A stretch of 64,000 nt of DNA from an uncultured Alphaproteobacteria bacterium (GTDB lineage Bacteria; Pseudomonadota; Alphaproteobacteria; Rhizobiales; Beijerinckiaceae), in assembly GCA_963724845.1 (NCBI GenBank), contig CAVRWF010000001.1, positions 843,720 to 907,719 of the forward strand, written 5' to 3'. Shown one piece after another: positions 20,625-45,079 of this stretch. Numbering within the stretch: the stretch's first letter is position 1; every line of letters begins with the position of its first letter. The notes beneath the pieces were generated by a model. That model saw only the letters and a list, made by a program, of their open reading frames with translations. It searched no databases and was not told where the DNA came from. Both the position numbers and the translations under genes were made by a program.

Positions 20625-20638
20625 ACGGAGTTTCGTCC

Positions 20639-22796: not shown

Positions 22797-23396
22797 ATGT
22801 TGGCTCAACTGCGTTCCGCGATCGTGATGATCGCATTGTTCACTGCTTTAACCGGTCTCGCTTACCCTTTGGCGATTACCGGCATCGCTCAGCTCGCTTT
22901 CTCTGGCAAGGCCAATGGCAGTGTCATAGAACGTGATGGCAAAATCGTCGGATCCACATTGATCGGCCAGAACTTCACGACTGATCGCTATTTTCATGGC
23001 CGCCCGTCGGCGACCAGCACGCCCGATCCCGCGGACTCCACCAAGACTATTGATGCGCCCTATAACGCAGCGAATTCGTCCGGCTCCAATCTCGGCCCAA
23101 CGTCACAAAAGTTGGTCGATCGCGTGAATAGCGCCATCGAGGCGGAATTCGCGACGGGACGGGTAGACATCGTGGCGGCCAACGCGGTCACGACTTCCGC
23201 CTCCGGTCTCGATCCGCACATTTCGCCTCAATTTGCATTGGCTCAGGTTCCGGCCATCGCCGCGGCGCGCGGCTTGAACGAGGGCCGGCTTCGCTCTCTG
23301 GTGGAGGCTCGTGTCGAGCAGCGCTTCGCCGGATTCATCGGGGAGCCACGCGTGAATGTCCTTTTACTCAATCTTGACCTGGACGCCTTGCAATAG
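22797..23396 (+). CDS. kdpC: Potassium-transporting ATPase subunit C
   Basis: 199 aa with an N-terminal TM and KdpC-like NSSGSNLGPTS and SASGLDPHISP motifs. Confidence 0.9.
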   Translation: MLAQLRSAIVMIALFTALTGLAYPLAITGIAQLAFSGKANGSVIERDGKIVGSTLIGQNFTTDRYFHGRPSATSTPDPADSTKTIDAPYNAANSSGSNLGPTSQKLVDRVNSAIEAEFATGRVDIVAANAVTTSASGLDPHISPQFALAQVPAIAAARGLNEGRLRSLVEARVEQRFAGFIGEPRVNVLLLNLDLDALQ

Positions 23397-23684: not shown

Positions 23685-24127
23685 ACTAAATGGCGGTGGA
23701 GCCGCGTGGTCACGCAACCGAGATAGATCGATGTCTCGAATGGGTCGGCGCTAAACACGGATTCTTCTCGCGCTGGCGCTGAATGCAGCTTTGACGTCGG
23801 GAAACACATCGGACCAACTGCAACTCATCAAAGATAATTGGATGATGGCGTCGGGGCGGACCTACTTCAGTCTTAAACGAGCAGCGCTAAATGCACTATG
23901 GCGTTGATGCATGCATCAGAAGCTGAGCAGAAGGAAGCGACCGTTTCAAACCCAATTTGTTCTCAGGGAAGTCTTCCACGTTTAACAATTGGCAAAAAGG
24001 CATAGTGGATTAGCACTCGGAGGCTCAAGCTGCGCAACAGCACATGGCCTTCGTGCGCCAGCGTAGCTGCGGAGGAAGGCAGTTGATTGCGAATATGCTA
24101 GCTCCCTGGGGATCGCGCGTCGATCAG

Positions 24128-25756
24128 ATGTTTCCCGTCCTCCAAGCGTCGGAAATAGCGCGAATGCGAAGATTTGGCGCGATCTGCCACTACCCCGATA
24201 GAACGCGGATAGCCGAAACCGGAAAGGCTGGTCCAGGCATGATCGTGGTCATAGGAGGCCAGATCGCTGTCACGCAACACGACGGACTGGGTCATATCAA
24301 CCCTGTGATCGACCACGGCCCGGGCGGGTTTTTTGGAGAGGTAGGACAACTTTCCGGGCGCCCATCGTTCGTTGACGCCCATGCTGAAGGTGACGTCGAA
24401 GGACTCGTTATCTCTCCGGAAAGGTTGCGGAGTATGCTTGTCGCAGAGGCGGATCTTGGCGAGCGCGTAATGCGAGCCCTGATTTTGCGGCGAGTGGCGT
24501 TGCTCCAGAGCGAAATAGGTGGTCCGCTCTTAATCGGCGCCGCCACAAACCCGGACGTAATGCGGTTGCAAGCCTTTCTTTCGCGCAATGGATACCCGCA
24601 TCACCTTGTCGACCCGGCTTTGGATCCTGAGGCTGCATCTTTTATCACCGTCTCCTCGATGAAGCTGCGCGGTCTGCCCTGGGTGGTTTGTGCAGATAGT
24701 TCTGTATTGTATAACCCCACCGAAGCGCAGCTTGCCCGCGCAATCGGCATGGTCGGATCGCGTCCAACCGGGATGCATTACGATGTAGCTGTCGTTGGCG
24801 CCGGGCCAGCGGGACTCGCGACGGCAGTTTATTCAGCGTCCGAAGGGTTGTCTGTTGCGGTTTTCGACGCTTGGGCATTTGGCGGTCAGGCCGGCGCCAG
24901 CGCCCGAATTGAGAATTACCTCGGCTTTCCAACTGGGATCTCGGGACAAGCCCTGGCCGGACGCGCCTTCGTTCAGGCACAAAAGTTCGGAGCCGACATT
25001 ACAATTCCCGCCGAAGTGAAAAATCTGCAGTGTCACGGAGCGGACGGCTTGTTCGAACTTAAGCTCGACAGCGGCGAATGCGTAACTGCCCGTTCGATCA
25101 TTATTGCGACCGGTGCGCATTACAGACGCCCATCTGTCCCGGACCTCAAGGCCTATGAAGGCAAGGGAGTTTGGTACTGGGCATCGCCGATCGAAGCCAA
25201 GTTTTGTGCAGGGGAAGACGTAATCGTCGTCGGAGGCGGCAACTCGGCCGCGCAGGCAGCGGTGTTTCTCTCCAAAGTCGCGGCCAGGGTTCTGATGTTG
25301 GTGCGCGGGCGCGGTTTGTCGGAAACTATGTCGCAATACCTTATAGACCGCATCGCCGCTGCGCCCAATATCGTTCTGCATACCAGCACGGAACTGGTCG
25401 CTCTTGGAGGGAGCGTCGAGCGTGGGCTGGAGCGAGTGAGATGGCGCAACCACAACAGCGGTATTGAGGAGGAGGAGAACATTCGGAACGTCTTCCTATT
25501 TATAGGCGCCGATCCCGCAACAGCTTGGCTTTCAGGTTGTGGGGTTGGTCTTGACGGCGCGGGTTTTGTGAAGACGGGCGGAGACGAAAATCCCGCGCAC
25601 AATGCACTCGAGACTAACATCCCCGGAATCTTCGCAGTCGGCGATGTTAGATGCGGGTCAGTCAAACGGGTGGGCAGCGCGATTGGCGAGGGTGCTCAAG
25701 TCGTTGCTGAGCTCCATGCATATCTATCCCGGTCTGATCAATCTAGTGCTTCATGA
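24128..25756 (+). CDS. Cyclic-nucleotide-binding-domain protein fused to a thioredoxin-reductase-like FAD/NAD(P) oxidoreductase
   Basis: The N-terminal cNMP-binding-like segment is GGFFGEVGQLSGRPS. The C-terminal half has VVGAGPAGLATAVY, VVGGGNSAAQAA and GIFAVGDVR dinucleotide-binding motifs. Confidence 0.8.
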   Translation: MFPVLQASEIARMRRFGAICHYPDRTRIAETGKAGPGMIVVIGGQIAVTQHDGLGHINPVIDHGPGGFFGEVGQLSGRPSFVDAHAEGDVEGLVISPERLRSMLVAEADLGERVMRALILRRVALLQSEIGGPLLIGAATNPDVMRLQAFLSRNGYPHHLVDPALDPEAASFITVSSMKLRGLPWVVCADSSVLYNPTEAQLARAIGMVGSRPTGMHYDVAVVGAGPAGLATAVYSASEGLSVAVFDAWAFGGQAGASARIENYLGFPTGISGQALAGRAFVQAQKFGADITIPAEVKNLQCHGADGLFELKLDSGECVTARSIIIATGAHYRRPSVPDLKAYEGKGVWYWASPIEAKFCAGEDVIVVGGGNSAAQAAVFLSKVAARVLMLVRGRGLSETMSQYLIDRIAAAPNIVLHTSTELVALGGSVERGLERVRWRNHNSGIEEEENIRNVFLFIGADPATAWLSGCGVGLDGAGFVKTGGDENPAHNALETNIPGIFAVGDVRCGSVKRVGSAIGEGAQVVAELHAYLSRSDQSSAS

Positions 25757-25768
25757 AAGAGTTGGAAC

Positions 25769-26077
25769 ATGGCTGAACAATGCAGCCACATCTCCGAAAT
25801 CCGAGTTGTCACTCCGAGTGCGTTGGGATGTGAGGAATGTTTGAAGATCGGCAGCACGTGGGTTCACCTGCGCCTGTGCCGCACTTGTGGGCATGTGGGA
25901 TGTTGTGACGACTCGCCCAACAAGCACGCCACACGGCACTATAAAGCGACGGGACATCCAATTATCGAAGGCTATGATCCGCCGGAAGGTTGGGGCTGGT
26001 GCTACGTGGATAAAGTTTTCCTTGATCTTTCTGATCGCATGACGCCCCACGACGGACCCATCCCGCGTTATTATTGA
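25769..26077 (+). CDS. UBP-type zinc-finger domain protein
   Basis: CEECLKIGSTWVHLRLCRTCGHVGCCDDSPNKHATRHYKATGHP is the zf-UBP Cys/His pattern. It starts 12 nt after the reductase stop. Confidence 0.8.
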   Translation: MAEQCSHISEIRVVTPSALGCEECLKIGSTWVHLRLCRTCGHVGCCDDSPNKHATRHYKATGHPIIEGYDPPEGWGWCYVDKVFLDLSDRMTPHDGPIPRYY

Positions 26078-26155
26078 TCCAAATAACGTGTGCTTCTTCT
26101 TCACGTTCGATAGTGTTGCTGCCGCGTTAAGCTCATAAGCACGGAGAGAACGCTT

Positions 26156-28322
26156 GTGACGTTCAAGGTTCAGGTTGGACCGGCGCAGATCGCGATCCAT
26201 CAGGGACAGACCGTGTTGGTGACCGAACCCGACGGACAGGTGAACTCGCCCAGCAGACGCGGTTTATTTTTTCGCGATACAAGAATGATCAGCGCCTGGG
26301 CGATTTATGCCAATGGCGAGCCGTGGAATCTGCTGAATGGCGGGGCGGTCGCACATAATGCGGCGCGTATTTTCCTGACCAATCGTGCATTCATGAGCGA
26401 GGAGGGATCGATCGCGGAGCGTACTTTGGGTTTAATTATCAGCCGTCACATCGACGGCGGGATGCACGAGGACTTGGATGTCACCAATAACAGTCATACT
26501 TCCGTGCGCTTTAACCTAGAGATCGCGATCCGAGCCGATTTCGCCGACATTTTTGAGGTGAAGCAGGACCAAATCGTGCGACGCGGCCGCATCACCACGG
26601 CTTGGGCGCCATCCCGCCAGACGCTTCGCATCAGTTATCGCAACAGAGATTTCAGCCGTGAGATAATCGTTCACACAGGTGAGGGAGACGGCGAGCCAAC
26701 AGTGAACGCAAACGGTCGGTTGAGTTTCAATATTGTATTGGATGCGGGGCGAACGTGGCATCGTTGCCTTGTTTATAATCTCGTGGACTGCTCGAAACGC
26801 ATTCAGGCGCCACGCGGATGCATTCATTCGAGTCACGCATCTGATCACGCCCGCAATATGGAAGAGTGGCAGAGAAAGAGTACTCAAGATATTCAGCAGC
26901 AACGAGGAATTTTATCGTTGCTACGATCAGGGGGTGCGGGACATAGCCGCCTTGAGACTGCCGCTCAAAGGTACAGATCATATGGTGTTCGTGCCTGCCG
27001 CCGGGCTGCCGTGGTTTGTGGCGTTGTTTGGTCGTGACACACTGATAGCCTCGCTGCAGACGATGATTGTCTACCCTGAATTCGCGGCCGGAACTCTCGA
27101 GGTGCTGGGGCAGTATCAAGCAACGGAGCTTGACGACTACCGCGACGCCGAGCCCGGCAAAATTCTGCACGAGCTGCGCTACGGAGAACTAGCGCATTTC
27201 AAGTTGATTCCACACACGCCATACTATGGCACCGCGGATGCAACGCCTCTGTATCTGGTGGCGCTGCACGCCGCATGGCGTGCGACGGGAGATCAAGGGC
27301 TTATAGAGCGGCATTTGCCGAACGCGGAGGCTTGCCTCAGTTGGATCGACAAATATGGCGATCGCGATGGAGACGGTTTCCAGGAATATGAGACCCGCTC
27401 GACCGCCGGTTACGAGAACATGGCGTGGAAGGATTCCGGTGACGCGGTGATGTATGCCGATGGCGCGCTCGTCAAGGGGCCTAAGGCGCTATGTGAGCTC
27501 CAGGGCTATGTTTATGACGCGTGGCTTCGCATGGCCGACATCTACGATGAGTTAGGAAACAAGCGCCGCGCCAACGCCTTGCGTAAAAAGGCCGCGGCGC
27601 TCTTTGAGAAATTCAATGACGTTTTCTGGGACGAGGAGGCTGGTTTCTACGCCTATGCATTGGATGGGGAAAAGAAAAAGGTGTTGTCGGTGACTTCGAA
27701 TGTCGGCCAATGCCTTTGGTCTGGAATCATCGATCCGAAGCGCGCAGCAAAGGTGGTGAATCGCTTGATGCGCAACGACATGTGGAGCGGGTGGGGGATC
27801 CGAACCCTTTCGGCTGACCATCCCTCTTTCAATCCGTATAACTACCAGACCGGAGCGGTGTGGCCACACGATAACTCGCTCATTGCGCTCGGCATGCGGC
27901 GCTACGGGTTTGCGACCGAGGCTGCTGCGGTAGCCCGGGACATCAGCGGAGCCGCGAGCCATTTCTTGCTGAACCAGCTTCCGGAGCTTTACGCCGGCCT
28001 GCAACGTGATCCCTTAAGTTTTCCGGTGCAGTATCTGGGAGCAAATGTTCCGCAAGCCTGGGCGGCCGGGACACCGTTCATGCTCTTGCAAACCTTGCTT
28101 GGACTACAGCAAGATGCGCCACGCGGTAAGCTCTACGTTGATCCTGCGCTGCCCGACTGGCTGCCCGATGTGACATTGACAGATTTCCGGCTTGGCCGGC
28201 GACGCTTCGATATCAGCTTCTGGCGCGAGGGCAAGGACACGCTCTTCAGGGTTCTGAAAGGTGAACGCGGCGCGGTGGAGCGAATGAGCATCGCTCAATT
28301 CCGCTGCAAACCAGGATTGTAA
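26156..28322 (+). pseudogene. Glycogen-debranching-type protein (GDE N-terminal domain plus amylo-alpha-1,6-glucosidase (alpha/alpha)6 domain) split by an apparent frameshift near 26870-26897
   Basis: Track ORF 26156-27037 carries the N-terminal domain up to ...NMEEWQRK. Track ORF 26733-28322, in another frame, carries ...IFSSNEEFYRCYDQGVRDIAALRL...AAGLPWFVALFGRD...EPGKILHE...YYGTADATPL...WKDS. In homologs these are contiguous in one roughly 720-aa protein. Confidence 0.75.
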
Positions 28323-28529
28323 CCAACGATCTAAACTGCGTCGCAGACGGCGCGCTTGCTGGTCAGAAGTCTGTGTAATGCAAAATGGCGATTCTCTTTC
28401 CGCAAGGATTGTCTTCTTCCGTCACTGCCGCAAATGGGATGTATCTCCGCCGCTCCTTTGCCGAGCGCGAGCTTGTGTTGAGCCTCGTTGGAAAGGCCAA
28501 GTCCTTCTAGATCCACAGAGGGGAAACCG

Positions 28530-30728
28530 ATGACGGATCAACATCGCTCTCAGGAATCCACGAAGCCTGCAAAGGCGAAGTCGAAGGCAGGACGTTCCGG
28601 GCGTGTGCTTTCAGGTGAAGTCAAAATGCTCCTGAATTCCGGCGACGAACTCCAGGCCAATGAACACTCGATCGATGAGCTTTGCATCAACACGATCCGC
28701 ACCTTGTCTATGGATGCCGTGCAACAGGCGAATTCTGGGCATCCGGGAACACCGATGGCGATGGCTCCGGTGGCTTATACTTTATGGCAGAACTATCTGC
28801 GTTTTGACCCCGAAGATCCTATCTGGCCGAACCGTGACCGCTTTGTCCTGTCCGCCGGGCACGCATCCATGCTGCTATATGCGATTCTGCATTTGACTGG
28901 CGTTAAAGCAGTTGACGCCAAATACGAACGCTTGGGCGAACTCTCTGTCACACTCGATGATATAAAACGCTTTCGTCAGCTCGGCAGCAAGTGTACAGGC
29001 CATCCCGAATACCGCCTCACCTCCGGAGTCGAAACCACGACCGGGCCATTGGGACAGGGTTGTGCCACCAGCGTAGGCATGGCGATAGCGGCGAAATGGG
29101 CTGCACAACATTTCAACCGGCCGGATTTCACGATATTCGACTATGACGTTTATGTGTTGTGCAGCGACGGCGACATGATGGAGGGCGTGGCGAGCGAGGG
29201 CGCATCGATCGCCGGCCATTTGATGCTGGGGAACCTGTGCTGGATTTACGACAGCAACCGCGTGACGATCGAAGGTCACACGGATCTCGCCTTTAGCGAC
29301 GACGTCGCCGCACGTTTCCTAGCCTATGGCTGGAATGTTTTGCGCGTCAGCGATGCGAACGACACGGAACGGCTGGCGCGGGCTATGGACAAATTCCGCC
29401 ACACCGAAGATGTGCCGACTCTGATCATAGTCGAGAGCCATATCGGGTATGGGGCTCCGCATAAGCATGACACCAGCGCTGCACACGGCGAACCGCTCGG
29501 CGAGGAAGAAATCCGACTTACGAAGCGTCGTTATGGCTGGCCAGAGGACGCGAAATTTCTTGTCCCGGATGGCGTGCGCGAGCATTTTCGGGCTGGCATG
29601 GGCAAGCGGGGTCGAAGCCTTCGCGAAAACTGGTTCGCCAAGCTGGACAATTACCGCGCACAATACCCGGAACTTGCCGACCAGCTCGAACGGATGCAGA
29701 AGCGCGCCCTCCCGGAAGGGTGGGACAAGGAGTTGCCTAGTTTTCCTGTTGACGCAAAGGGTCTGCCAAGCCGCGCCGCCTCTGGAAAAGTGCTAAACGC
29801 CATCGCGCCACGCTATCCCTGGCTCGTTGGCGGCGCCGCCGACCTTGGACCGTCGACCATGACCCGGCTTACCTTCGAGGGAGCAGGGGATTTCGAGGCG
29901 GACCACTATGGCGGACGTAACCTTCACTTCGGCATTCGCGAACATGGCATGGCGGCTGTTTTAAACGGGCTCGCTTTGTCAAAGATTCGCGCTTTCGGTT
30001 CGACTTACCTCATCTTCAGCGACTATTTAAAGCCGGCTCTGAGGTTGAGCGCTATAATGGAGATTCCAGTCATCTTCATCTTTACCCATGATTCAATCGG
30101 GGTAGGCGAAGACGGCCCAACTCACCAGCCGGTCGAGCAGCTTGTCTCACTGCGCGCAATTCCCGGAATGATCACATTGCGGCCCGCGGACGCGAACGAG
30201 GTGACCGAAGCCTGGCGTGTCATAGGGGTTCTGGAGCATCAGCCGGCTTGCCTGGTGTTGAGCCGTCAAGCGCTTCCCACGTTGGACCGCAAGCGTTATG
30301 CGCCGGCCGAAGGAGTTGCTCGTGGCGCCTATGTGCTGGCCGATGCGGAGAACGGCAAACCAGAGGTTTTGCTCATAGGCTCGGGCGGCGAGGTCGCCTT
30401 TTGCATCGATGCATATGAATCGCTCAAGAAGGATGGCATAGGCGCTCGAGTTGTCAGCATGCCGTCATGGGAGCTGTTTGAGCAGCAAGATTCGACCTAC
30501 CGAGATTATGTGCTTCCGCCTGAAGTCAAGGCCCGGGTTTCAGTCGAAGAAGGCTCGGTTCTGGGTTGGGACCGCTATGTTGGCGCGAGCGGCGCGACGA
30601 TAGGCATGCACACGTTTGGCTCCTCCGCGCCGCTTAAGGATCTCTTGACCAAGTTTGGCTTCACACCCGAGAAAATTCACTCCGCCGCAATGGAGCAGAT
30701 CGCCAAATGTAGGCGGGAGATGATCTGA
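28530..30728 (+). CDS. tkt: Transketolase
   Basis: Motifs: SMDAVQQANSGHPGTPM, GPLGQGCATSVGMA and the HDSIGVGEDGPTHQP TPP-binding segment. Start uncertain: ATG 28530 (SD GAGGGG) or ATG 28626 (SD GGTGA). Confidence 0.9.
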   Translation: MTDQHRSQESTKPAKAKSKAGRSGRVLSGEVKMLLNSGDELQANEHSIDELCINTIRTLSMDAVQQANSGHPGTPMAMAPVAYTLWQNYLRFDPEDPIWPNRDRFVLSAGHASMLLYAILHLTGVKAVDAKYERLGELSVTLDDIKRFRQLGSKCTGHPEYRLTSGVETTTGPLGQGCATSVGMAIAAKWAAQHFNRPDFTIFDYDVYVLCSDGDMMEGVASEGASIAGHLMLGNLCWIYDSNRVTIEGHTDLAFSDDVAARFLAYGWNVLRVSDANDTERLARAMDKFRHTEDVPTLIIVESHIGYGAPHKHDTSAAHGEPLGEEEIRLTKRRYGWPEDAKFLVPDGVREHFRAGMGKRGRSLRENWFAKLDNYRAQYPELADQLERMQKRALPEGWDKELPSFPVDAKGLPSRAASGKVLNAIAPRYPWLVGGAADLGPSTMTRLTFEGAGDFEADHYGGRNLHFGIREHGMAAVLNGLALSKIRAFGSTYLIFSDYLKPALRLSAIMEIPVIFIFTHDSIGVGEDGPTHQPVEQLVSLRAIPGMITLRPADANEVTEAWRVIGVLEHQPACLVLSRQALPTLDRKRYAPAEGVARGAYVLADAENGKPEVLLIGSGGEVAFCIDAYESLKKDGIGARVVSMPSWELFEQQDSTYRDYVLPPEVKARVSVEEGSVLGWDRYVGASGATIGMHTFGSSAPLKDLLTKFGFTPEKIHSAAMEQIAKCRREMI

Positions 30729-30800
30729 ATCCTTTCTGCCTCGTTTTGAAAGGGGCAGGATAGGGTTCGATCAATTTGGGTGTCGTTTCGAGAATGCGTG

Positions 30801-32324
30801 ATGTCGACACAAGCGAAGGTTCCTGATCCCTGCATCCTCGTCATATTCGGCGCGACGGGGGACCTCACGAAACGTCTGCTTGTACCGGCTTTGTGCAATC
30901 TGAAACGAGCCAAACTTCTACCAGAGCGCTTCGCTCTCATAGGGGTCTCGCGCGCCGACAAAACCGACGAAACTTTCCGTCGCGATCTTTGTGCAGCTTT
31001 GAATGAATTTGTCTCTTGCAGGGTTACGTCCGGCGAAGAGCAATGGTTTGCAGAACGCGCGCGCTATCTACGGGGCGACTTTGATGACTCTTCCACATAT
31101 AAGGCGCTGGCGCGACTTTTGAGTGAAATGAGCGAGAAGTATAGCGTCGGGGATAATTGCTTGTTTTATCTTGCAACTCCGGCGAGTGTTTTCTCAACCA
31201 TTGTGCGTCGCCTCGGTGAGGCCGAACTCGTGCGTGAGGATGGTAATTTTTGGCGCCGGGTAATTATCGAGAAGCCATTCGGTTCTGACCTCAGCTCAGC
31301 GCAAGCGCTCAACCGCGACATCCTCGCAGTATTAGCTGAAACACAAATTTATCGCATCGATCATTACCTTGGAAAAGAAACGGTTCAGAACATCATGGTC
31401 CTTCGTTTCGCGAACGGACTTTTCGAACCGCTTTGGAACCGCGATCACATTGATCATGTGCAGATTACCGTGGCGGAGACTGTCGGGGTCGAGCGACGCG
31501 GAGCGTTCTACGATGCTACCGGTGCTCTGCGAGACATGGTGCCAAACCATCTCTTTCAACTGCTCACGCTTGCCGCGATGGAGCCGCCGACGTGTTTTGA
31601 CGCTGATGCTTTGCGGTCGGAAAAGGCGAAGGTGCTGGACGCTGTCCACTATTTCGATTGCGATGACGCACGGAAGAACGTGGTGCGCGCGCAATATGGC
31701 GCCGGCGCGATCCGCGGAGAACCCGTTGTTCCATACCGGAGTGCGCCCAATGTCGCGCCAAATTCGGTTACGGAAACCTATGTCGCACTCAAGCTGATGA
31801 TCGACAATTGGCGTTGGGTTGGTGTGCCTTTTTATTTGCGGACAGGCAAGGCGCTGGCCGCACAGCACACTGAGATTTCGATCCAGTTCAAGCAGGCCCC
31901 ATTGACACTTTTTCGTGACACGCCGGTGGAGCGCTTAACGCCGAACGACCTGGTGCTGCATATCCAGCCCGATGAGGCCGTCACCCTGTTGTTCGGCGCC
32001 AAGATGCCAGGACCGAATATGCGTATATCCGGGGTCGAGATGAAGTTTAATTACGAGGATTATTTCAAAGTTCCGGCGAGCACCGGCTACGAAACGCTGG
32101 TCTATGACAGTATGGTAGGCGACGCGTCGTTATTCCAGCGCGCCGACAACATTGAGGCGGGATGGCGCGTGGTGCAGCCTGTTCTCGACGCCTGGGCTCA
32201 GGACCACGTGTCAGAACTGCCGATCTATCCAGCGGGCGGCGAAGGACCGAGAGAGGCTGATGCGCTTGTGGAGCGTGATGGCCGGCGCTGGCGTTCTATT
32301 GGCGAACATGGAAAATCGGCATGA
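30801..32324 (+). CDS. zwf: Glucose-6-phosphate 1-dehydrogenase
   Basis: Motifs: [21 protein letters not shown] and EKPFG. Confidence 0.9.
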
Positions 32325-33940
32325 GTTCCCATGAGTGTTGCCCAGCGAACCGGATATCAGCCTTAATATCTGACGTCGACGGCACTCTAGTGACTGACGA
32401 CAAAGTTCTGACCGAGCGCACGCTCGCTGCGGTGAATGAGCTTCGGTCTGCCCTTATCGCTTTCACCATCATCAGCAGTCGCTCCCCGCGCGGCTTGCGC
32501 GGGTTGATCAACTCACTACACATCACCACACCGATTGCGGCTTTCAACGGCGGTGCAATTTTAGCGCCGGACGCGTCTGTAATTGAAGAGCATGTTCTTT
32601 CGCCAGAGCTAGCTCGGCAAGCCCTGAACTTGCTATCCAGCTACGGAGTTGAAGTCTGGCTTTTTAGCGGAGTGGATTGGCTCGCTCGCAGTCTAAGCAG
32701 TCCTTATGTCGATTTGGAAAAGCGGTCGGTGGGCTTCGAGCCAACCGTGGTCGACGAATTCGGGGAAGCGCTTGACCGCGCCTACAAGATCGTCGGCGTC
32801 AGTGACGACTTTTCGCTTTTGTCCCGCTGCGAAGGTGATATTCGCAGGGTATTTGCGGACAGGGCGTCGGTCGCGCGATCTCAGCGATATTATCTCGACA
32901 TCACCGATCTAAAAGCGAACAAGGGAACGGCTGTGCTCACGCTGTCGAAATTGCTCGGGATCCCGGTAACGGAGATCGCGGTCATTGGCGATGGCGCCAA
33001 CGACATCGCGATGTTCAAGCGAAGTGGTCTCAGCATCGCAATGGGAAACGCCGCACCCGAAGTTCAGTCAGCGGCAAACCTCGTGGCTGACAGCAATCAA
33101 AAGGAGGGTTTCTCTATGGCTGTCGAGCGCTTCATTCTTGGCGACGCGCACAGTGCCGAAGAGCGGCAGACGCAAACTTCCAGCCCGCCACGAGCCAGGT
33201 TTGAGATCATGGTCGACAAGGAAGCCCTTGCGCGTCGCGCCGCCGAATGGCTGCTTGCTCTCGCCGTTGCAAAGAGCGGAATCTTCACTATTGCACTTTC
33301 CGGAGGCAGCACTCCGCGCGGGCTATATGAGCTGTTAGCGGAACCACCGTACCGAGACAATTTTCCGTGGGATCGCACGCACTGGTTTTGGGGCGATGAG
33401 CGATTCGTTCCCCGGAACGATCAGCGGAGCAATTACCGGATGGTTCGGGAGGCGCTGTTGACGCGCGCCCCAATTCCAGCCGCTAATATCCACCCAATTG
33501 ACACCGATTATCCAACGGTTGAGGCAGCGGCGGTCGCATATGAGAAAACGCTACAATCATTCTATGGCGCGAGCAGTTTGGATTCGAACCGACCCTTGTT
33601 TGACGCAACTCTGCTCGGGCTTGGACCGGATGGGCACACCGCGTCGCTGTTTCCTGGATCTTCGGCGTTGGACGAACGCAACAGATGGGTCGCTGCTGTT
33701 CTCGACGGCGGACCGGAGCCTCGCATTACGCTGACTTATCCCACTTTGGAGAGTAGTCGTCGCACAGCTTTTCTGGTTGCTGGAACGGATAAGCGGGAGA
33801 TCTTCCAGCACCTTCGATCCGGAGATCGGCAAATTCCTGCCGGGCGCTTCCAACCGGTGGGCGCCGTGTGCTGGTTTGTCGATAAGGCCGCCGCTGGCGA
33901 TAGCGGCGTAGCAGAAAGTAGTTCGATCTTTAATCGCTGA
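32321..33940 (+). CDS. pgl: Fusion protein: Cof-type HAD-IIB phosphatase (N-terminal about 270 aa) plus 6-phosphogluconolactonase (C-terminal about 240 aa)
   Basis: A single uninterrupted 539-aa ORF. HAD motifs are ISDVDGTL (motif I) and [10 protein letters not shown] (motif IV). The Pgl part has [20 protein letters not shown] and [16 protein letters not shown]. The ATG overlaps the zwf stop (ATGA at 32321-32324). Confidence 0.8.
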
Positions 33941-34097
33941 TTTTGTCTGTCGAGCAATGGTGTTAAAACGTGCTGCGACGGTTTAATGCGGCGCTTTTGG
34001 GTCAACCAAAGGGAAGCAGACCAGCCTGAACGCAAGCGAAGGGTTCTCCCTCGCGTTCCGTTCGATTGACGCTTGAATCGATTGATGCTTGAACCAT

Positions 34098-34805
34098 TCA
34101 TCGAAGCGCGTTCTTTGTTGCAATACAGCTGGCGTCGCGGATGCCTGCAATCGCCGCCGCGTAATCGTCTGATCCAAAGATGGCCGTGCCTGCCACTATA
34201 GCGTTCGCCCCCGCACTGCATGCTCGTCCAGCGCTTTCACAGTTCTGGCCCCCGTCAACCTCGATAAACGGTTCAAAACCGCGCGCGTCGCATAGCTTGC
34301 GTATTTTGCGGATCTTGGGGAGCATTTCCGACAAGAATTGCTGTCCGCCAAATCCAGGATTGACGGTCATGACCATGACGACTTCGCAAAGGTGCAGCAC
34401 ATATTCGATCAGCTCTACCGGGGTCGCGGGATCGAGCACAACGCCACATTTCATCCCCATTTCCCGGATTTGTGAAAGAGTTTTGTGGAGATGAATTGTC
34501 GAGGAAGGCTCTGCCTGGATCAGCAGATGGTCTGCTCCGGCTTTGGCGAAGGCGGCTAGATAGCGTTCGGGCTCGATAACCATCAAATGCACATTAAGCG
34601 GCTTTTGCGTACAACGGCGAACCGCCTCGACCACTTTAGGACCCATGGTGATATTAGGGACAAATCGCCCATCCATGACATCGATATGGATCCAGTCGGC
34701 TCCAGCCGCATCGACCGTACGGATTTCCTCGCCAAGCCTAGTGAAGTCAGCCGACAATATCGAGGGCGCAACCACGATTGAACTCTGTGACGCGACTCTG
34801 ATCAT
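34098..34805 (-). CDS. rpe: Ribulose-phosphate 3-epimerase
   Basis: Motifs: APSILSADF, HIDVMDGRFVPN, MTVNPGFGGQ and VDGG. The ATG overlaps the upstream HAD stop (ATGA). Confidence 0.9.
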   Translation of the reverse strand: MIRVASQSSIVVAPSILSADFTRLGEEIRTVDAAGADWIHIDVMDGRFVPNITMGPKVVEAVRRCTQKPLNVHLMVIEPERYLAAFAKAGADHLLIQAEPSSTIHLHKTLSQIREMGMKCGVVLDPATPVELIEYVLHLCEVVMVMTVNPGFGGQQFLSEMLPKIRKIRKLCDARGFEPFIEVDGGQNCESAGRACSAGANAIVAGTAIFGSDDYAAAIAGIRDASCIATKNALR

Positions 34806-35794
34806 GTCTGTTTACGTTCCGCGCTTTTCTCACCGTGACAAGAGTTAGTTTGGTGGCTGGTCCTTGTATGAGCCGCGTAATGCGATCGCAGGTCATCCAG
34901 ACGCAACAGTAGTTCATGCACGGCTTTGGCGAAGCCATCGTTTTCATTGCTGTCAGTCACCACATCTGCCCGCGCCTTTACCTCGTCGTTTGCGTTAGCC
35001 ATAGCGATGGAGAAGCCACTCTTGCAGAACATCGGAATGTCTGTCGGCATGTCTCCTATTGTAGCAATCTGCTCCAAGGGGATGCTCAGCAGATTCGACA
35101 GAGTCTGCACGACCATTCCCTTATTGGCCTGCGGATGGGTTACGTCGAGATAGTAAGGCTGGGAACACGCGGCGTTTGCCTTCGGACCTAGGGTGTTTTG
35201 CACGGCCTTGGCGCAGGCTGCGACAAGCTCAAAGTCGTCAGAAACGCCGACGATCTTCACTGCCTCCGACAATTGTGCATCGGAAAAGCGCTCTACAGTT
35301 TCTGGATCAAATTTCACCGTCCATGCTTCACGCGCTACATGTGGAGCATTCGCGTTGCGGATGAGCCATTCATTCCCCGTATAGATCCATGCGTCAAGTC
35401 CTTGATCTATCATCAGCGTAAGGGTCTGTTTCGCCGCCGCAGGATCGAGAGTGAAGCTGCTGACGACCGAGAAGTCAGGATTTACGAGCAGGCCTCCGTT
35501 GAAACCTGCGATGACGGTATCAAGAGCGAGAGGCTTGATCAGCATTTTCATGCCGCGCGGCGGGCGACCGCTTGTGATCGCCAATCTAACGCCAGCGCGG
35601 CGAAGTTGACCCGAGGCTTCCTTCGCTTCTTCAGTCAACACTTTTTCTTGTGTTAGCAGCGTGCCGTCAACGTCAGCAAGCAGTAAGCGGATGTCGTGTT
35701 GAAGGGTCTTGAATCGCGCTCCCCTATAGCTATCGTTTGGGGCGGGACCCTTTTTGCCATCCTGGCGTCGCCTCTGCGGAAAGTCCATGGCCAT
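34802..35794 (-). CDS. Cof-type HAD-IIB family hydrolase (paralog of the N-terminal half of 32321-33940)
   Basis: Contains LADVDGTLL, ITSGRPPRG, YYLDVTHPQANKG and GDMPTDIPMF. It aligns by eye with the fusion protein (IAGFNGG / [16 protein letters not shown] in both). Confidence 0.8.
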   Translation of the reverse strand: MAMDFPQRRRQDGKKGPAPNDSYRGARFKTLQHDIRLLLADVDGTLLTQEKVLTEEAKEASGQLRRAGVRLAITSGRPPRGMKMLIKPLALDTVIAGFNGGLLVNPDFSVVSSFTLDPAAAKQTLTLMIDQGLDAWIYTGNEWLIRNANAPHVAREAWTVKFDPETVERFSDAQLSEAVKIVGVSDDFELVAACAKAVQNTLGPKANAACSQPYYLDVTHPQANKGMVVQTLSNLLSIPLEQIATIGDMPTDIPMFCKSGFSIAMANANDEVKARADVVTDSNENDGFAKAVHELLLRLDDLRSHYAAHTRTSHQTNSCHGEKSAERKQT

Positions 35795-35803
35795 TGCTCC
35801 GCG

Positions 35804-36844
35804 CTACTTTGTTGGGCTTTGGTCCACGGAATTTGCTGATGTCGCATTCGATTCAGGAACAGGCAAACTACCACCCTCCAGGTGACCGCCGAACTCAAAA
35901 CGCAAGGCGGACAATATCTTTTCTCCAAATGTGTGCTCACGCCGCGAACCGAATCGCGCGTACAGCGCCGCAGACAGGACATTCGCCGCCACTGATTCCT
36001 CAATTGCTGCTTCAATTGTCCAGCGACCTTCGCCGGAATCTTGAACAAAGCCGCTGTAACGACCCAGTTGCGGGTCCTGCGCGAGCGCAGCGGCGCCAAG
36101 GTCGAGCAGCCATGAGGAAATAACGCTGCCTCGACGCCAGACCTCGGCAATGTCCGGAAGGTTGAGTTCGAAACGCTCGTGCTCGGGCAAATCGCTCGAC
36201 GCCTTATTGCGCAGGATATCGAACCCCTCGGCATAAGCCTGCATTAATCCGTATTCGATGCCGTTATGAACCATTTTGACAAAATGACCCGCGCCTGAGG
36301 GGCCAGCATGGATATATCCGCGCTCAGCCCGCTTATCAGTCGATCGCCGGTCGGGGGTACGCGGAATATCTCCCGTGCCGGGAGCTAGAGCGTCGAAGAT
36401 GGGGTCGAGATAATCGATTACGTCTTTTGGGCCACCGATCATCATGCAATAGCCGCGATCGAGGCCCCACACGCCACCCGAAGTTCCACAATCGACATAG
36501 CGAATTCCCTTATGGCTCAGTTTTTCGGCGCGGCGAATATCGTCTTTGTAAAACGAGTTGCCGCCATCAATAAGGATATCTTCTGGCTCTAACAGTCGAC
36601 CAAGAGCCTCCACGGTTTCTTCAGTGATTTGGCCGGCTGGCAACATCAACCATATCGCGCGCGGGTTCTCGCGAAGCGACCTGGAAAGTTGCTCGAGCGA
36701 ACCTGCTTCGGCGGCCCCAAACTTGGCCAGCGTCTCGCGAGCCTGAGCGTCTACATCGAACACCACGCAACTATGCCCCGCCTTTATCAGGCGGCGACAA
36801 ATATTACCTCCCATGCGGCCTAGCCCGACGATGCCGATCTCCAT
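35804..36844 (-). CDS. gnd: 6-phosphogluconate dehydrogenase, decarboxylating (short Gnd/YqeC-like form)
   Basis: Has the [11 protein letters not shown] Rossmann motif plus [14 protein letters not shown] and DSGEGRWT, typical of 6PGDH. Confidence 0.85.
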
Positions 36845-36869
36845 GGTTTTACTCCTTGGAATCTCGCAG

Positions 36870-39701
36870 CTACTGCAAAGCGCTTTCTACCGCCCGGGCC
36901 AGTGTTGGAAGTCCCGTCTCGACATCCTCCAGATGAATGCGCAAAGCGCGCCGCCCTCGCTCGACCAGCACTTCAAGATCGCTCCGCGCCTGCGCCGCCT
37001 TGACAACTCCAAAGCTGTAGTGGTGTCCGGGCACCGTGATGTTTTTCGGATCGTCGCACGTAAGCTGCAAGAATACTCCCGAATTAGGGCCTCCCTTATA
37101 AGCCTGCCCCGTCGAATGTTGGAAGCGAGGTCCAAAGCCTAGGCATGTCGCGGCGCGGGTTTTGTCGCGCAGACGCTCGCGTATTGCGGCCAGCATTCGG
37201 CTATGCTTATCATTGCGCTCCACATAAGCCAGCAAGGCTAGATAATCAGTCCCTCCGCGTGCGCGCGCGATATGATTACGCAAATAGCCGGATAACGTGT
37301 TGCTTCGGCCGAGTTCCTCAGCGTTGCGCGGGTCGGCGTAGAGCGCAACGCCATTTTCGCGATATATGGGCTCGTCCCGGGGGAGAGACTGAGACGCCTC
37401 AAATTGCTCAGTCAGTGTGCGGGTCCTGCTCTTGCTTGCCTCGACATCTGGCTGATCATATGGGTTGACGCCGATAATGGCGCTCGCCACCGCAGTGGCG
37501 ATTTCCCAGCGGAAGAATTCCCGGCCGAGTCGCCAAACATCTTTGATGCTTATGTGGGCTACTGGATGGCCCGCGTGCTCTAGCGCCTTCATCGCTTGGC
37601 GCATCGCTGGATCTATTCGCCCGTCGAGTTCCAAAAACACAAAAAAGCGATCGTCCGAATAGCGGTCGGGAGTTGCCACCGGCTCTCCGACTACAGGAAT
37701 CAATCCTCGACCCTGCTTGCCAGTGCTCTCCGCGAGAAGCTGCTCCAACCAAGCGCCAAAGGGTGCGATCGGTTCGGAAGCTATGATTGTTATCTTGTCA
37801 CGGCTAAAGCGCGTCGCTGCGATGCCAATGGCGACGCCCAGCTTCACCCCCGGGTTTTCCTTCGGCGGAACATCGGGTCCGCAGGCGCGCTGCATAGGAC
37901 GTGTCGTCTCCAGAAGGCGTTTGACATCTAGGCCCATGGCCGCGGCAGGTGCGAGACCGAATTTCGAAAGCACCGAATAACGCCCGCCAATCGAGGGCGC
38001 GCCAAAAAAAACATTGGCGAAGTTCAGTTCTTTAGCCCGATGTTCCAGCGAGGAGCCCGGATCGGTGATTGCGACGAATTGCTCACCCGCCTTGTCGTCG
38101 CCTCTTTGACTAGCGACGCGATCGAAAAAATAATCCAGCAGGATATTTGGCTCCAAGGTGCTTCCGGATTTGGACGAGACGATAAACATCGCTTTTGGCA
38201 AATTAATCGCCTGCTCTGTTGTCTCAATCTGTGCCGGGTCGGTGCTATCAAGCATATGAAAGCGTGGCCAATGGGACTGACGGCCGAAGATTTCACTCAG
38301 CACTTCTGGCCCCAGGCTGGAGCCGCCCATTCCCAACAGGAGCACATCTTCAATCCCGCGATGTCTAATCTGGTTCACAAACGCCTGCACCACGTCGAGT
38401 TCCGCCAACTCCTTCTCGACGATGCGCAGCCAGCCAATCCATTTATTCTCGTTCGTTCCAGTCCAAAGCGATTTGTCTCCGGCCCATAAGCGGCGTATGC
38501 GCCCCTCCTTGCGCCATGCCTCCAGCTCGCTCTCGATCGCCGCCGTGATTTCTAGGGAAGTTGTTTTGATTTCCAGGGGATCATCGCCGCCCTCATGCAA
38601 ATCGCTGCGTTTCTGCGCAATCGCGCCCAATAGTTTGTCGAATGCGTCTGAGAACTTTTGTACGCCGTCCTCGACCAGTTCCTGTGTTATTTCTTTTAGC
38701 GAAACGCCTTGTTCCTCAAGAGTTGCAAGTGTCGTCCAGGCATCGCCAACATTTCGCGTTATGGTGTTCGCAGTCGCTTTACCGTGGTCGCGAAATGCCT
38801 CCATCGTCGCGGGCGGCATAGTGTTCACGGTGTCAGAGCCTATCAGCTCGTCGACATACCGAGTGTCTGGATAGGAGGGATCTTTTGTTCCGGTCGAGGC
38901 CCAGAGCAGGCGCTGCCGCTTGGCGCCCAACGATGCAAGTAAGCGCCAACGAGGAGAAGAGAACAGCGCCTCGTATCGACTGTAAGCAATCTTTGCATTG
39001 GCGATCGCCGCTCTGCCACGCAAGCGTTTCGCCACCTCCCTGTCGCTGATTTGTTCGAGTCGCTTGTCGACCGCCGTGTCGATGCGGCTGACAAAGAAAC
39101 TCGCGACGCTTGCAACTTTCGAAACATCGCCGCCGCCTTGTTTCAAATCTTCCAGACCGGACATATAGGCATCGACAACCTGTTCGTATACGTCCACGGA
39201 AAACAGCAAAGTTACGTTGATGTTCACTCCCTTGCCGATCAATACACGAATCGCAGGAATACCGGCCGCCGTCGCAGGCACCTTCACCATCAGATTGGGA
39301 CGATCGACGGCCGCCCACAATCGCAGCGCTTCATCGACTGTTGCGGCGGTATTTTTAGCTACATAGGGCGAGCATTCCAGGCTGATGAATCCATCCGCGC
39401 CTCGTTTTTGCAGGTAAATCGAATGCAAAACGTCGGCCGCACTGCGTATGTCGGTAATAGCCAAGTGCTCGTAGATTTCGGAGATTGAATGGTCGGCTTG
39501 CTCCTGGAACGTTTTAATGGCGCCGTAATATTCATCGCTTTCGCCAATCGCCTTCTCGAAGATGGACGGATTCGAAGTTATACCCTTGAGCCCGTCGCTC
39601 TCGATAAGGTTGTGGAGGTCCCCGCTTTCAATCAGGCTGCGCTTGAGATAGTCAAGCCAGACAGATTGCCCAAATTGTTCCAGTTGTTGCAGGGCATTCA
39701 T
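36870..39701 (-). CDS. Bifunctional transaldolase / glucose-6-phosphate isomerase
   Basis: 943 aa. The N-terminal transaldolase has [17 protein letters not shown] and MVKVPAT. The C-terminal PGI has a SIS-like region ([23 protein letters not shown]). This fusion type is known from other proteobacteria. Confidence 0.9.
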
Positions 39702-40675
39702 AACGGGGCCCTTTCGGCTCCGCGTTAGTTTCCGCGGACAGACTTCAATACTTTCGGCTGGCTATATGTCGTTGCAGATTCGAAAGGCCAGCGTCGCATA
39801 TGATTAAAAAACAACTTGGCTCTGTGCCTGAGCCGTGCGTTGCCTTGACTCAGCTGTATTGAGCCCCAGACATCTTTCGCGCAGGTGCGACCTTTGGAAC
39901 AGCTACCGGTCGAATCGCCAGCTAATAGTTGCACCTACGAGGGCGTCGTCATCGGTTCTCGAAAGCTCGCAAACTGGGATGGTGCTCCGGCCGCCGGCGT
40001 GAGGGCTTCACCCGCGGCCAATTGGCTTCACGCTCCAACCGACCACGCGAAACGCCAGCGCAGATTCAGACCTCCGTGCGCGCGGTTCTCCAGAGATATT
40101 AGAGTCATCGGCGACACCGCGACTATAGATGCGCGGATAGGAAAGCCTACGCTGGGAATCGCGCCGGCGAAACAGCAAGACCGTCATGCAGCCGCAACAA
40201 TCAGCTTGCGCCTTAGGGACGACATGGCGCTATAGGCGCTCCGCGAAGATTGGCGAGCGAGCCGTCGTCGAATTCGGGCGTTTGAAATCCCTGGTGGGTT
40301 GCCTGACGGCTATGGAGTCTCGCCCTGACGCGTCTGCCGCCGTCTCGATGAAAGTAGCGGATTGCTTTGCGAAGGCTCTGTCATTTCCCCGATCGTTTTT
40401 GCGATCAACTAAGTAGCATTCCGCAATTTCAAGAAATGTCGCCGCCTATTAAGAGAAGGCTAGAATGCGTGTGGCCACATGCTGCTGCATTACGGGAGTA
40501 GCCCTCACAACGAGCAATTTGGAGCGTCACCTCATGCGCAATATCTTTTCCAAAACTTTCCAATGCGCTCGCCTTGGAATTTCGACGCAATCCTGTGGCC
40601 ATGAACTGGCACAGGAATTGATTGTGCGCTCAAGGCATATTTGTCGTAAAAAATATTGATGGCGGAGGGAAGCGC

Positions 40676-41422: not shown

Positions 41423-41812
41423 GTCATCTCTCCAAACATGTTTTAGGAGAAGGCCCGCATTCGCGGGGCCGGTTCGATCGAAGTTTGGAAGAGGTCGTCA
41501 GCGGCTTCGTTACCAAAGCAAGTCCAAGTCGTCAGGCCGAAAATCGATGCCCGAAGCATAATGGCCCTCAAAACCGATTGCAACCGAGAGCGTCAGGCTC
41601 AAACGCAAACTGGCCGCGTACCAGACCCTTGGCGGCATTTTTGTCGCTCAGTTTTTGGCCATCGCTCGGAACGCAGTCATCTCAAAAGGACGGCGAATTG
41701 CATGATTCCGTTAGGGTGCGGGCGCCAAGTTCACTGGTCCTCGCCTCATATTGATGGACATGTTGCCATTTGGCATGGATTTGATTATTTTATGCCGAAG
41801 AAGAGGTGTTTC

Positions 41813-42229
41813 ATGGCCGCGCTGCTTCCCGTCGACACAGCTGCAGGAGACTTTTCCCCCGCGCCAATCACCGACATCGAAGCCGCCGCCATGTTTCGGG
41901 CTGTCACCAACCTTTTCCGTCTTTGGTCGGTAAACGATGAGCAGGCGGCGATTTTGCTGGACTTGCCTGTTCGCTCCTATCGACGATGGAAGGCGGGGGA
42001 GATCGGTCGCTTTGATCGTGACCGTAAAGCGCGTCTTTCAAATGTCTTGGGCATCCATAAGGCATTGAGAATTATCTTTCGCGAACCTCAGCGAGGCTAT
42101 GCCTGGATGCAGGCGCCCAATTCTGCTTTCGGGGGGCGGACCGCTCTTCACGTCATGCTCGGCGGAGAGCTAACTGATTTAATGCGGGTTCGTCGATATT
42201 TGGACAGCGAACGGGGGGCTGGTGAATGA
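41813..42229 (+). CDS. Xre/MbcA/ParS-type antitoxin (C-terminal DUF2384-like domain)
   Basis: WSVNDEQAAILLDLPVRSYRRWKAG (HTH-like) and GGRTALHVMLGGELTDLMRVRRYLD (DUF2384-like). It overlaps the RES gene by 8 nt. Start is 41813 or 41792. Confidence 0.75.
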   Translation: MAALLPVDTAAGDFSPAPITDIEAAAMFRAVTNLFRLWSVNDEQAAILLDLPVRSYRRWKAGEIGRFDRDRKARLSNVLGIHKALRIIFREPQRGYAWMQAPNSAFGGRTALHVMLGGELTDLMRVRRYLDSERGAGE

Positions 42230-45042: not shown

Positions 45043-45079
45043 TCGACCCGAACATCGTTTTCCCATGAGGACACAAGAA

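Follow-up and report, generated by a model that had tools for sequence, protein, structure and literature searches.

The 64,000-nt stretch of contig CAVRWF010000001.1 analysed here (positions 843,720 to 907,719, from an uncultured Alphaproteobacteria bacterium), hereafter the window, contains a cluster of pentose phosphate pathway (PPP) genes in which a Cof-type HAD-IIB phosphatase domain and a 6-phosphogluconolactonase (Pgl) domain are encoded by one open reading frame (ORF), HAD::Pgl. The cluster consists of two convergent operons, GDE-tkt-zwf-HAD::pgl on the plus strand and tal::pgi-gnd-HAD_B-rpe on the minus strand (Table 1), and the same layout is found at the nearest related locus, L001. 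The ATG of the fusion gene at 32321 overlaps the TGA of zwf at 32322-32324, as read directly from the sequence, and the corresponding junction in L001 is a 14-nt overlap. The ATGA overlap bears out a preliminary description of the sequence, which had held the fusion gene to be translationally coupled to zwf. The free HAD encoded in the minus-strand operon (HAD_B) shares 47% identity with the fused domain (BLASTP) and keeps the motifs DVDGT, SGR, NKG and GDMPTD intact; compared with the fused copy, it is extended by 30 aa at the N-terminus and by 35 aa at the C-terminus. Tal::Pgi and the short-type gnd are of known kinds, typical of the cyclic PPP clusters of the acetic-acid-bacteria type. Neither a gluconokinase gene nor a GH15 gene was found in the 64-kb window. 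Promoter and terminator scans of positions 26000-40500 gave sites no more numerous than in shuffled sequence, so no operon boundaries were drawn, and the inverted repeats in the 157-bp gap between the two operons are weak.

The fusion ORF starts with ATG and encodes 539 aa followed by a stop codon, with no internal stop in the ORF listing. Its N-terminal part matched Pfam Hydrolase_3 (PF08282) over residues 15-266 (profile positions 1-253 of 255, 185 bits, E 2.8e-54) and the Cof-type HAD-IIB model TIGR00099 of NCBIfam over residues 15-265 (profile 2-253 of 256, 158.7 bits, above the cutoff of 137). Its C-terminal part matched Pfam Glucosamine_iso (PF01182) over residues 299-517 (profile 2-224 of 225, 230.5 bits, E 3e-68) and the NCBIfam pgl model TIGR01198 over residues 312-525 (profile 20-231 of 234, 200 bits, above the cutoff of 124.45). 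The Pfam and NCBIfam scores of both halves are far beyond chance, and the near-full profile coverage of both domains within one ORF is what the preliminary description had reported. The motifs it quoted were all located, namely DVDGTL at residues 18-23, a 10-letter motif at 223-232, ALSGGSTPR at 325-333 and a 12-letter motif at 435-446.

The HAD half carries the catalytic residues D18 and D20 (motif I), S52 (motif II), K201 (motif III) and D224 and D228 (motif IV), and its motifs, read as D18-V-D20-G-T22, S52, K201 and G-D224-GAN-D228, follow the DxDxT/S-T/K/GDxxxD pattern. In 173 of the 174 aligned HAD domains of the family described below, fused and free, the catalytic set does not vary (nucleophile and acid/base Asp, Ser of motif II, Lys of motif III and the two Asp of motif IV), which argues for an enzyme rather than a scaffold. 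In an AlphaFold2 model built on a 50-row alignment (mean predicted local distance difference test score, pLDDT, 85.2; ~95 in the HAD domain and ~80-95 in the Pgl core), an alpha/beta insertion at residues ~80-195 with pLDDT >90, lying between motifs II and III, corresponds to a C2B cap. Foldseek aligned the HAD half with the Cof-type structures 4dwo, 1rkq and 3pgv at template modelling (TM) scores of 0.86-0.91 (target-normalised), with TM ~0.9 to YidA, a BT HAD and PfHAD1, and matched the other half to Pgl structures. None of the PDB chains among the Foldseek matches spans both halves.

The roles of the SGG(S/T)TP, GDER and catalytic-His motifs of Pgl are known from the structures of the Trypanosoma brucei and Thermotoga maritima enzymes. 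In the C-terminal half these motifs are present as SGGSTP, GDERFVP and the 12-letter motif with His439, that is, S327-G-G-S-T331-P, G358-D-E-R361 and D437-G-H439-T-A-S-L-F-P-G446; they align with DevB 1y89 and are invariant among six fusion proteins. The best PDB sequence matches of this half are 1y89 (DevB) and 3ico (Mycobacterium tuberculosis Pgl). In NCBIfam, glucosamine-6-phosphate deaminase models scored far under their cutoffs, and Pgl is therefore favoured over NagB. Residues 267-298 separate the Pfam envelopes of the two domains, and residues 276-290 have pLDDT <50, so that the earlier estimate of a linker of about 20 aa is fair. The disordered stretch spans about 15-30 aa, and a linker of ~23 residues has no counterpart in free HAD or Pgl proteins; its length and sequence differ between lineages. 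The predicted TM-score (pTM) of 0.62 and the disordered linker only say that the orientation of the two domains in the model is not fixed. On these sequence features, we are confident that the gene encodes a genuine two-domain enzyme. Its N-terminal half is, with equally high confidence, a catalytically intact-looking Cof-type HAD-IIB phosphatase of paralog clade A, and its C-terminal half is very likely an ordinary DevB-type 6-phosphogluconolactonase, the sole pgl of the cluster.

Table 1 Features of the HAD::pgl locus and its surroundings in the window.
Feature	Position	Strand	Basis or remark
HAD::Pgl fusion CDS	32321..33940	+	single ORF, two domain matches above curated cutoffs
Cof-type HAD-IIB phosphatase domain, paralog clade A	32354..33136 (residues 12-272)	+	PF08282, TIGR00099, Foldseek, pLDDT ~95
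Inter-domain linker	33137..33205 (residues 273-295)	+	polar, Pro/Ser/Thr-rich, disordered
DevB-type 6-phosphogluconolactonase domain	33206..33901 (residues 296-527)	+	PF01182, TIGR01198
Start/stop overlap ATGA of the fusion gene with zwf	32321..32324	+	sequence ...cggcATGAgt...
zwf (glucose-6-phosphate dehydrogenase), overlaps 5' end of the fusion gene	30780..32324	+	TIGR00871, 613.7 bits
tkt (transketolase)	28488..30728	+	Pfam Transketolase_N, Transket_pyr and C-terminal domains
GDE-like (glycogen-debranching / MGH1-like) glycoside hydrolase, split over two frames	26156..28322	+	GDE_N_bis on 26156-27037; GDE_C and MGH1-like on 26733-28322
rpe (ribulose-phosphate 3-epimerase), last gene of the convergent operon	34098..34805	-	PF00834, 265.6 bits
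Free Cof-type HAD-IIB hydrolase, 330 aa, paralog clade B	34802..35794	-	TIGR00099, 163 bits; between gnd and rpe
Short-type 6-phosphogluconate dehydrogenase (gnd), 346 aa	35804..36844	-	NF007161, 459.5 bits; TIGR00872 gnd_rel, 371 bits
Bifunctional transaldolase/phosphoglucose isomerase (Tal::Pgi), 943 aa	36870..39701	-	NF007080, 1385.9 bits
Xre-like antitoxin (Xre-like-HTH and Xre_MbcA_ParS_C)	41561-42229	+	domain content
RES-domain toxin	42222-42935	+	8-nt overlap with the antitoxin gene
Probable kdpA and kdpB	18915-22786	+	inferred
kdpC	22797-23396	+	confirmed
Fusion protein of cNMP-binding domain and pyridine-nucleotide-disulfide oxidoreductase	24044-25756	+	L001 keeps the kdp-to-oxidoreductase order
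PHB-depolymerase-type esterase, unrelated to the fusion	44951-46330	+	Esterase_PHB, 147 bits

Adjacent overlapping HAD and pgl genes might have been merged by an indel error in the assembly. HAD and pgl are indeed separate overlapping ORFs in an Acetobacter metagenome-assembled genome (MAG), related long-read assemblies hold many broken or merged genes (locus L018 gives a spurious-looking Zwf-HAD 'fusion', P0019), and in the window itself a frameshift splits the GDE-like gene that lies 5 kb upstream. The frame switch of this gene lies at ~26871-26878, as located by tblastn with the intact 721-aa L001 ortholog (94% identical), and reflects either a recent pseudogene or an assembly indel error. 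However, three species-level relatives, each from another project, share the in-frame HAD-linker-Pgl architecture and have homologous linkers: the window, a JGI contig (P0002, 84% identity) and a 3.78-Mb contig of an uncultured alphaproteobacterial MAG in ENA together with a separate Logan assembly (P0003, 79%; loci L001 and L002). Over the comparisons made, the identity of P0002 and P0003 ranges over 77-84%. Remoter HAD::Pgl proteins were found in other projects (P0006, 52%; P0007, 47%; P0008, 45%), including short-read MEGAHIT contigs from several samples. The 181-nt junction differs from that of L001 by substitutions only, with no gap, and a linker of ~23 residues is not expected from merging an overlap of 4 to 37 nt. 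The ratios of nonsynonymous to synonymous substitution rates (dN/dS) against L001 are 0.16 for HAD, 0.13 for Pgl and ~1.1 for the 23 codons of the linker, a pattern in which both domains are under purifying selection while the linker drifts freely yet stays in frame. The absence of an internal stop and the in-frame junctions in independent assemblies largely answer the question, raised in the preliminary description, of a hidden stop or frameshift between the domains. The artefact explanation is already largely refuted, and we consider it highly improbable.

The two domains are more commonly found apart. In locus L019 the operon reads tkt-tal::pgi-gnd-zwf-HAD_A-HAD_B-rpe-pgl-gluconokinase-GH15, and L017 has the same operon except that HAD_A and HAD_B are fused; L003 reads zwf-HAD_A-HAD_B::pgl-gluconokinase. 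The Acetobacter MAG (L012) has tkt-tal::pgi-gnd-HAD-pgl with separate, overlapping HAD and pgl genes. The locus finder had matched L012 to residues 8-526 of the fusion protein, but its translation gave two overlapping ORFs in different frames, and it was classed as unfused. In Gluconobacter oxydans, the published map has no entry for GOX1706, running from GOX1703 (tkt) through 1704 (tal/pgi) and 1705 (gnd) to 1707 (pgl), 1708 (rpi) and 1709 (gnk) (PMC6191907); GOX1706 is probably the HAD slot, judging only from the gap in this list and from the Acetobacter locus. Two cultured bacteria carry related genes, both annotated merely as 'Cof-type HAD-IIB family hydrolase': plasmid pNXO2 of Sphingomonas sanxanigenens NX02 has tkt-tal::pgi-gnd-zwf-Cof-HAD-HAD-IIB-GH130-pgl, and Streptomyces viridifaciens has a HAD-zwf pair. 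The free proteins of strain NX02 have the accessions WP_245648919.1 and WP_047100359.1. The pNXO2 locus (L100, 685-14035) comprises a complete PPP operon with both HADs, a gene of the GH130 glycoside phosphorylase family and one for a mannose-6-phosphate isomerase; since pNXO2 is a 374-kb conjugative plasmid, the whole module can be mobile.

To describe this group, we use a PPP-operon Cof-HAD family that was defined in this analysis and is not a curated one: at least ~40% identity to the window HAD, and a position next to zwf, pgl, gntK or gnd. The window HAD, which overlaps zwf, belongs to it. Cap residues particular to the family, such as W113 and W120, are conserved; inferring the substrate from cap residues was set aside as unreliable. 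A pattern scan of metagenome contigs with the HAD-clade alignment yielded the 80 nearest HAD relative loci, at 46-62% identity. Among the 39 loci of at least 5 kb, 31 had PPP or gntK genes (zwf in 22, gnd in 20, pgl in 19 and gntK in 11). The immediate upstream neighbour was zwf in 19 of 44 informative loci, and the immediate downstream neighbour was pgl in 11, rpe in 8 and gntK in 7 of 52. No HAD::Pgl fusion was present among the 80 loci. We therefore hold it very probable that a widespread family of Cof-type HADs, encoded as a rule by free genes, sits between zwf and pgl or gntK in operons of the oxidative PPP (oxPPP). By the same comparison, an ancestral tkt-tal::pgi-gnd-zwf-HAD_A-HAD_B-rpe-pgl-gntK operon was in all likelihood rearranged in the window lineage into two convergent operons, with HAD_A joining pgl. 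The sequence comparisons thus present HAD::Pgl as a rare derived state of a common operon and not as an isolated oddity.

HAD and Pgl were combined, in both domain orders, in only ~10 of the 891 protein clusters matched at E <= 1e-20, so the architecture is indeed rare, a point on which the preliminary description had left its novelty to depend. By identity and in a neighbour-joining (NJ) tree, the fused HAD of the window falls into clade A, where most free proteins and the leading domain of HAD-HAD tandems are also found. Clade B takes in the free HAD of the window, the fused HADs of P0006 and P0007 and the second tandem domain, and the fused HAD of P0008 (three assemblies) lies on another branch; the NJ tree of HAD domains has no bootstrap support, and the assignment to clade A or B rests on consistent identity differences of 6-15 points. 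The reverse order, Pgl::HAD, occurs in P0039, P0015, P0121 and P0145, which are mutually collinear at 33-65% identity, and the reverse architecture is therefore itself conserved. In total, the sequences suggest at least four independent fusions, a count that is approximate because the NJ tree lacks bootstrap support. Other partners of the HAD domain are transaldolase (HAD::Tal in P0157 and in L097, 7748-9868) and an HAD-IA domain (Cof-HAD::HAD-IA in P0133 and P0162). Two apparent triple fusions, P0019 (G6PD_C-HAD) and P0102 (G6PD_C-HAD-Pgl), lie on truncated or heavily frameshifted contigs and were not counted.

Pgl was also seen joined to Rpe (P0036, P0043, P0061, P0085, P0091 and P0098), to RpiA (P0068, P0081, P0092 and P0120) and to a gluconokinase-like kinase (P0084 and P0100), and two, three or four complete Pgl domains occur in tandem in P0123 (1093 aa), P0134 (830 aa), P0149 and P0252. 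The many pairwise fusions of Pgl or HAD with PPP enzymes suggest that neighbouring genes fuse frequently in compact operons, and some of them may be gene-calling merges. Just downstream of the PPP cluster, the Xre-like and RES genes of the window form a type II toxin-antitoxin pair, and an antitoxin homolog is found at the equivalent place in L001.

The metabolites common to Zwf, Pgl and gluconokinase are 6-phosphogluconolactone (6PGL), 6-phosphogluconate (6PG) and gluconate. The preliminary description had suggested a dephosphorylating shunt or a proofreading activity, which is plausible and now better motivated by the gene context and the independent fusions. Its example, the conversion of 6PG to gluconate, would be undone by the gluconokinase often encoded at the end of the operon, giving a futile cycle. 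Since a phosphatase acting on 6PG or glucose-6-phosphate (G6P) beside gluconokinase and zwf amounts to such a cycle, the lactone is a more coherent candidate substrate than 6PG. The independent HAD-Pgl fusions, in both orders and with either paralog, point strongly, on genomic grounds, to a function that the two share at the lactone/gluconate node. In Escherichia coli lacking pgl, the entire oxPPP flux passes from 6PGL through dephosphorylation to gluconolactone and gluconate and then through GntK/IdnK (bioRxiv 10.1101/2023.11.29.569206). The authors of that study state that the gene for the dephosphorylation of 6PGL in E. coli is yet to be identified, and report that gamma-6PGL forms faster than delta-6PGL is hydrolysed and that both are reactive electrophiles (bioRxiv 10.1101/2023.11.29.569206).

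We therefore propose that the HAD domain acts on 6PGL that escapes Pgl, at the metabolite node where Zwf, Pgl and gluconokinase also work, and give this reading a probability of roughly one in three. In the proposed scheme, Zwf would yield delta-6PGL, which the Pgl half would hydrolyse to 6PG; the HAD half would dephosphorylate the lactone that escapes Pgl, especially the spontaneously formed gamma isomer, to gluconolactone. Gluconolactone would open to gluconate, and gluconokinase, where present, would return the carbon as 6PG. The fusion would then be a lactone clearance module, in which a single chain combines the two ways of disposing of a reactive intermediate and is made in a fixed ratio to Zwf through translational coupling. 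The paralogs A and B may divide the delta and gamma lactones between them or form a heterodimer. The wider claim, that the PPP-operon Cof-HAD family is the missing 6PGL phosphatase and provides an intracellular damage-control and salvage branch (6PGL to gluconolactone, gluconate and, by GntK, 6PG) in many Alphaproteobacteria, Actinomycetota, Acidobacteriota and other soil bacteria, is possible but more tentative.

Several observations weigh against the lactone as substrate. Cof-type HADs are notoriously promiscuous and their specificity is not readable from sequence, and the nearest characterised relatives (YidA, YbiV, PfHAD1 and BT4131) are only 20-30% identical. Eight of the 39 long loci lack any PPP gene, one of the eight having a canonical pgi directly upstream instead (L067), and the HAD operons of L008, L009 and L011 have no pgl nearby. 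Gluconokinase is encoded in only 11 of the 39 long loci and is missing from the window, and the HAD::Tal fusions (P0157 and L097) point to the non-oxidative branch. With its flexible linker and moderate pTM, the structure model offers no hint of a fixed channel linking the active sites. The retention of two paralogs side by side is accounted for by none of the readings considered here, and the HAD loci without pgl nearby and the eight without PPP genes likewise fit none of them.

The promiscuity of Cof-type enzymes leads directly to a second explanation, which we regard as possible and nearly as likely as lactone clearance: the HAD would be a broad-specificity overflow valve, a phosphatase acting on substrates such as G6P, 6PG, pentose phosphates, erythrose-4-phosphate and sedoheptulose-7-phosphate that sets metabolite pools and eases sugar-phosphate stress around the PPP, a role for which other Cof-type enzymes offer described precedents, and its fusion to Pgl would serve co-expression only. 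This is consistent with the generalist nature of the closest relatives in sequence and structure (YidA 1rkq, YbiV 1rlm, PfHAD1 4zev and BT4131 1ymq), with the variety of partners, whether fused or neighbouring, that the family has (Pgl, Tal, a second HAD, an HAD-IA domain and PGI), with the flexible linker and lack of confident inter-domain packing, and with the rarity of the fusion relative to the free gene. However, a constitutive G6P or 6PG phosphatase coupled to zwf, and often co-transcribed with gluconokinase, would burn ATP in a futile cycle. In addition, the PPP genes do not adjoin the HAD evenly, zwf being preferred on its upstream side and pgl or gntK on its downstream side, and repeated independent fusions to Pgl in both orders exceed what co-expression needs, as operon neighbours are already co-expressed.

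The fusions to Tal bear on another explanation, in which the HAD or HADs hydrolyse fructose-1,6-bisphosphate (FBP) or sedoheptulose-1,7-bisphosphate and thereby close a cyclic oxidative PPP. Triose phosphates coming out of the non-oxidative branch would be recycled to fructose-6-phosphate, converted to G6P by Tal::Pgi and returned to Zwf, so that glucose could be oxidised completely, as acetic acid bacteria do. Of the steps in such a cycle, only the triose-recycling phosphatase is not otherwise encoded in the operon (which has tkt, tal::pgi, gnd, zwf, pgl and rpe), and besides HAD::Tal (P0157 and L097), the canonical PGI directly upstream of the HAD in L067 and a fructose-bisphosphate aldolase fragment adjoining a Fischerella homolog also fit this idea. 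The free paralog scored 92.9 bits on the NCBIfam pyridoxal phosphatase model PRK10530, which we take to represent E. coli YbhA, an enzyme that presumably also hydrolyses FBP, but this score is far under the cutoff of 274. The commonest partners of the family are Zwf, Pgl and GntK and not Tal, Pgi or aldolase, and to our knowledge no class of fructose-1,6-bisphosphatase (FBPase) is of the HAD-IIB type. Furthermore, in G. oxydans, which apparently shares this operon, a canonical FBPase is annotated elsewhere as a gene of its own, GOX1516 (PMC6191907). A bisphosphatase role is thus unlikely.

The HAD might also not be a phosphatase in vivo, being instead either an HAD-IIB phosphomutase interconverting glucose-1-phosphate and G6P, which would feed glucan-derived glucose-1-phosphate to Zwf, or a structural or regulatory partner of Zwf and Pgl resembling OpcA. 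Eukaryotic phosphomannomutases (PMMs) are HAD-IIB proteins, and glucan or trehalose hydrolases (GDE-like, GH15 and GH130) flank many of the HAD operons. The position of the gene parallels that of opcA within the Corynebacterium glutamicum operon tkt-tal-zwf-opcA-devB (PMC2230225). The full invariance of the phosphoryl-transfer residues, however, argues for catalysis, and Pfam gave no match to PMM (PF03332, at E <= 1e-3) or to OpcA families. The top 50 Foldseek neighbours are Cof phosphatases, with no PMM-type mutase among them, and Streptomyces, which we take to possess OpcA, carries the HAD-zwf pair nonetheless. We consider both variants of this explanation very unlikely.

The importance of the finding hinges on the substrate of the HAD, and culturable carriers exist. 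The oxPPP is a textbook pathway, yet in many bacteria its operon contains, at a central position, a conserved phosphatase gene (often two) that awaits explanation; the industrial G. oxydans is probably among these bacteria, as judged from the gap in its published gene list. If the family is a 6PGL phosphatase, a defined repair or salvage branch would be added to central metabolism, flux models for PPP-dependent production strains would change, and there would be a handle on unwanted protein gluconoylation, 6-phosphogluconolactones being protein-modifying electrophiles. If it is instead a generic overflow valve, the outcome would be a modest improvement in annotation.

Literature searches on the HAD and Pgl fusion, GOX1706, a 6-phosphogluconolactone phosphatase and HAD phosphatases in PPP clusters found nothing relevant, in line with the earlier suggestion that HAD::Pgl is undescribed; in the plasmid collection, no record covered at least 80% of the fusion protein. 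Public names for the fusion are '6-phosphogluconolactonase' or '6-phosphogluconolactonase/HAD-superfamily hydrolase'. The HAD half resembles the Cof-type HAD-IIB sugar phosphatases, such as E. coli YidA and YbiV/SupH, Bacteroides thetaiotaomicron BT4131 and Plasmodium falciparum PfHAD1, in fold, C2B cap and the four HAD motifs, and its best PDB sequence match is YidA (E 3.5e-26). It is not a YidA ortholog, however, as it scored 100.7 bits on the YidA equivalog model NF007806 (cutoff 273), and it fell under the cutoffs of all the YbhA, YigL, Cof/HMP-PP and MPGP models in NCBIfam. Its family sits in oxPPP operons and in some cases has Pgl, Tal or a second HAD as fusion partner, traits not described for the known Cof phosphatases. 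Over its C-terminal 240 residues the protein is a complete Pgl of the DevB-type group (Vibrio cholerae DevB 1y89, M. tuberculosis Pgl 3ico and T. maritima TM1154), with SGGSTP, GDER and the 10-letter motif kept; known bacterial Pgl proteins are single-domain, whereas the fusion bears a 295-residue N-terminal extension consisting of HAD and linker.

In linking the enzyme types phosphatase, lactonase and gluconokinase, here through operon and fusion, the locus recalls the E. coli 'Pgl bypass', reportedly described by Kupor and Fraenkel, now 50 years old and quantified in bioRxiv 10.1101/2023.11.29.569206, and the two may be connected. That bypass was seen in pgl mutants and is partly extracellular, while in the window Pgl is present and is fused to the candidate phosphatase. 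The HAD occupies the same slot between zwf and pgl as OpcA, the assembly factor or activator of glucose-6-phosphate dehydrogenase (G6PDH) in tkt-tal-zwf-opcA-devB operons (PMC2230225), but it has no sequence or fold relation to OpcA and keeps a full catalytic apparatus. The fusion of a PPP enzyme to a pathway neighbour is shared with the G6PD::6PGL proteins (Plasmodium GluPho and human H6PD, PDB 8em2) and with bacterial Tal::Pgi, and H6PD is among the PDB matches of the Pgl domain. The fusion ORF contains no G6PD_N or G6PD_C domain by Pfam, zwf being a separate overlapping gene, and thus falls outside the G6PD::6PGL class. In GluPho, H6PD and Tal::Pgi the partners catalyze consecutive canonical steps, whereas here one partner is a phosphatase without a textbook step in the pathway. 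Fusions of PPP enzymes are therefore well known; what is new is the presence, inside oxPPP operons, of a conserved phosphatase family without described function and the recruitment of such a phosphatase as a fusion partner.

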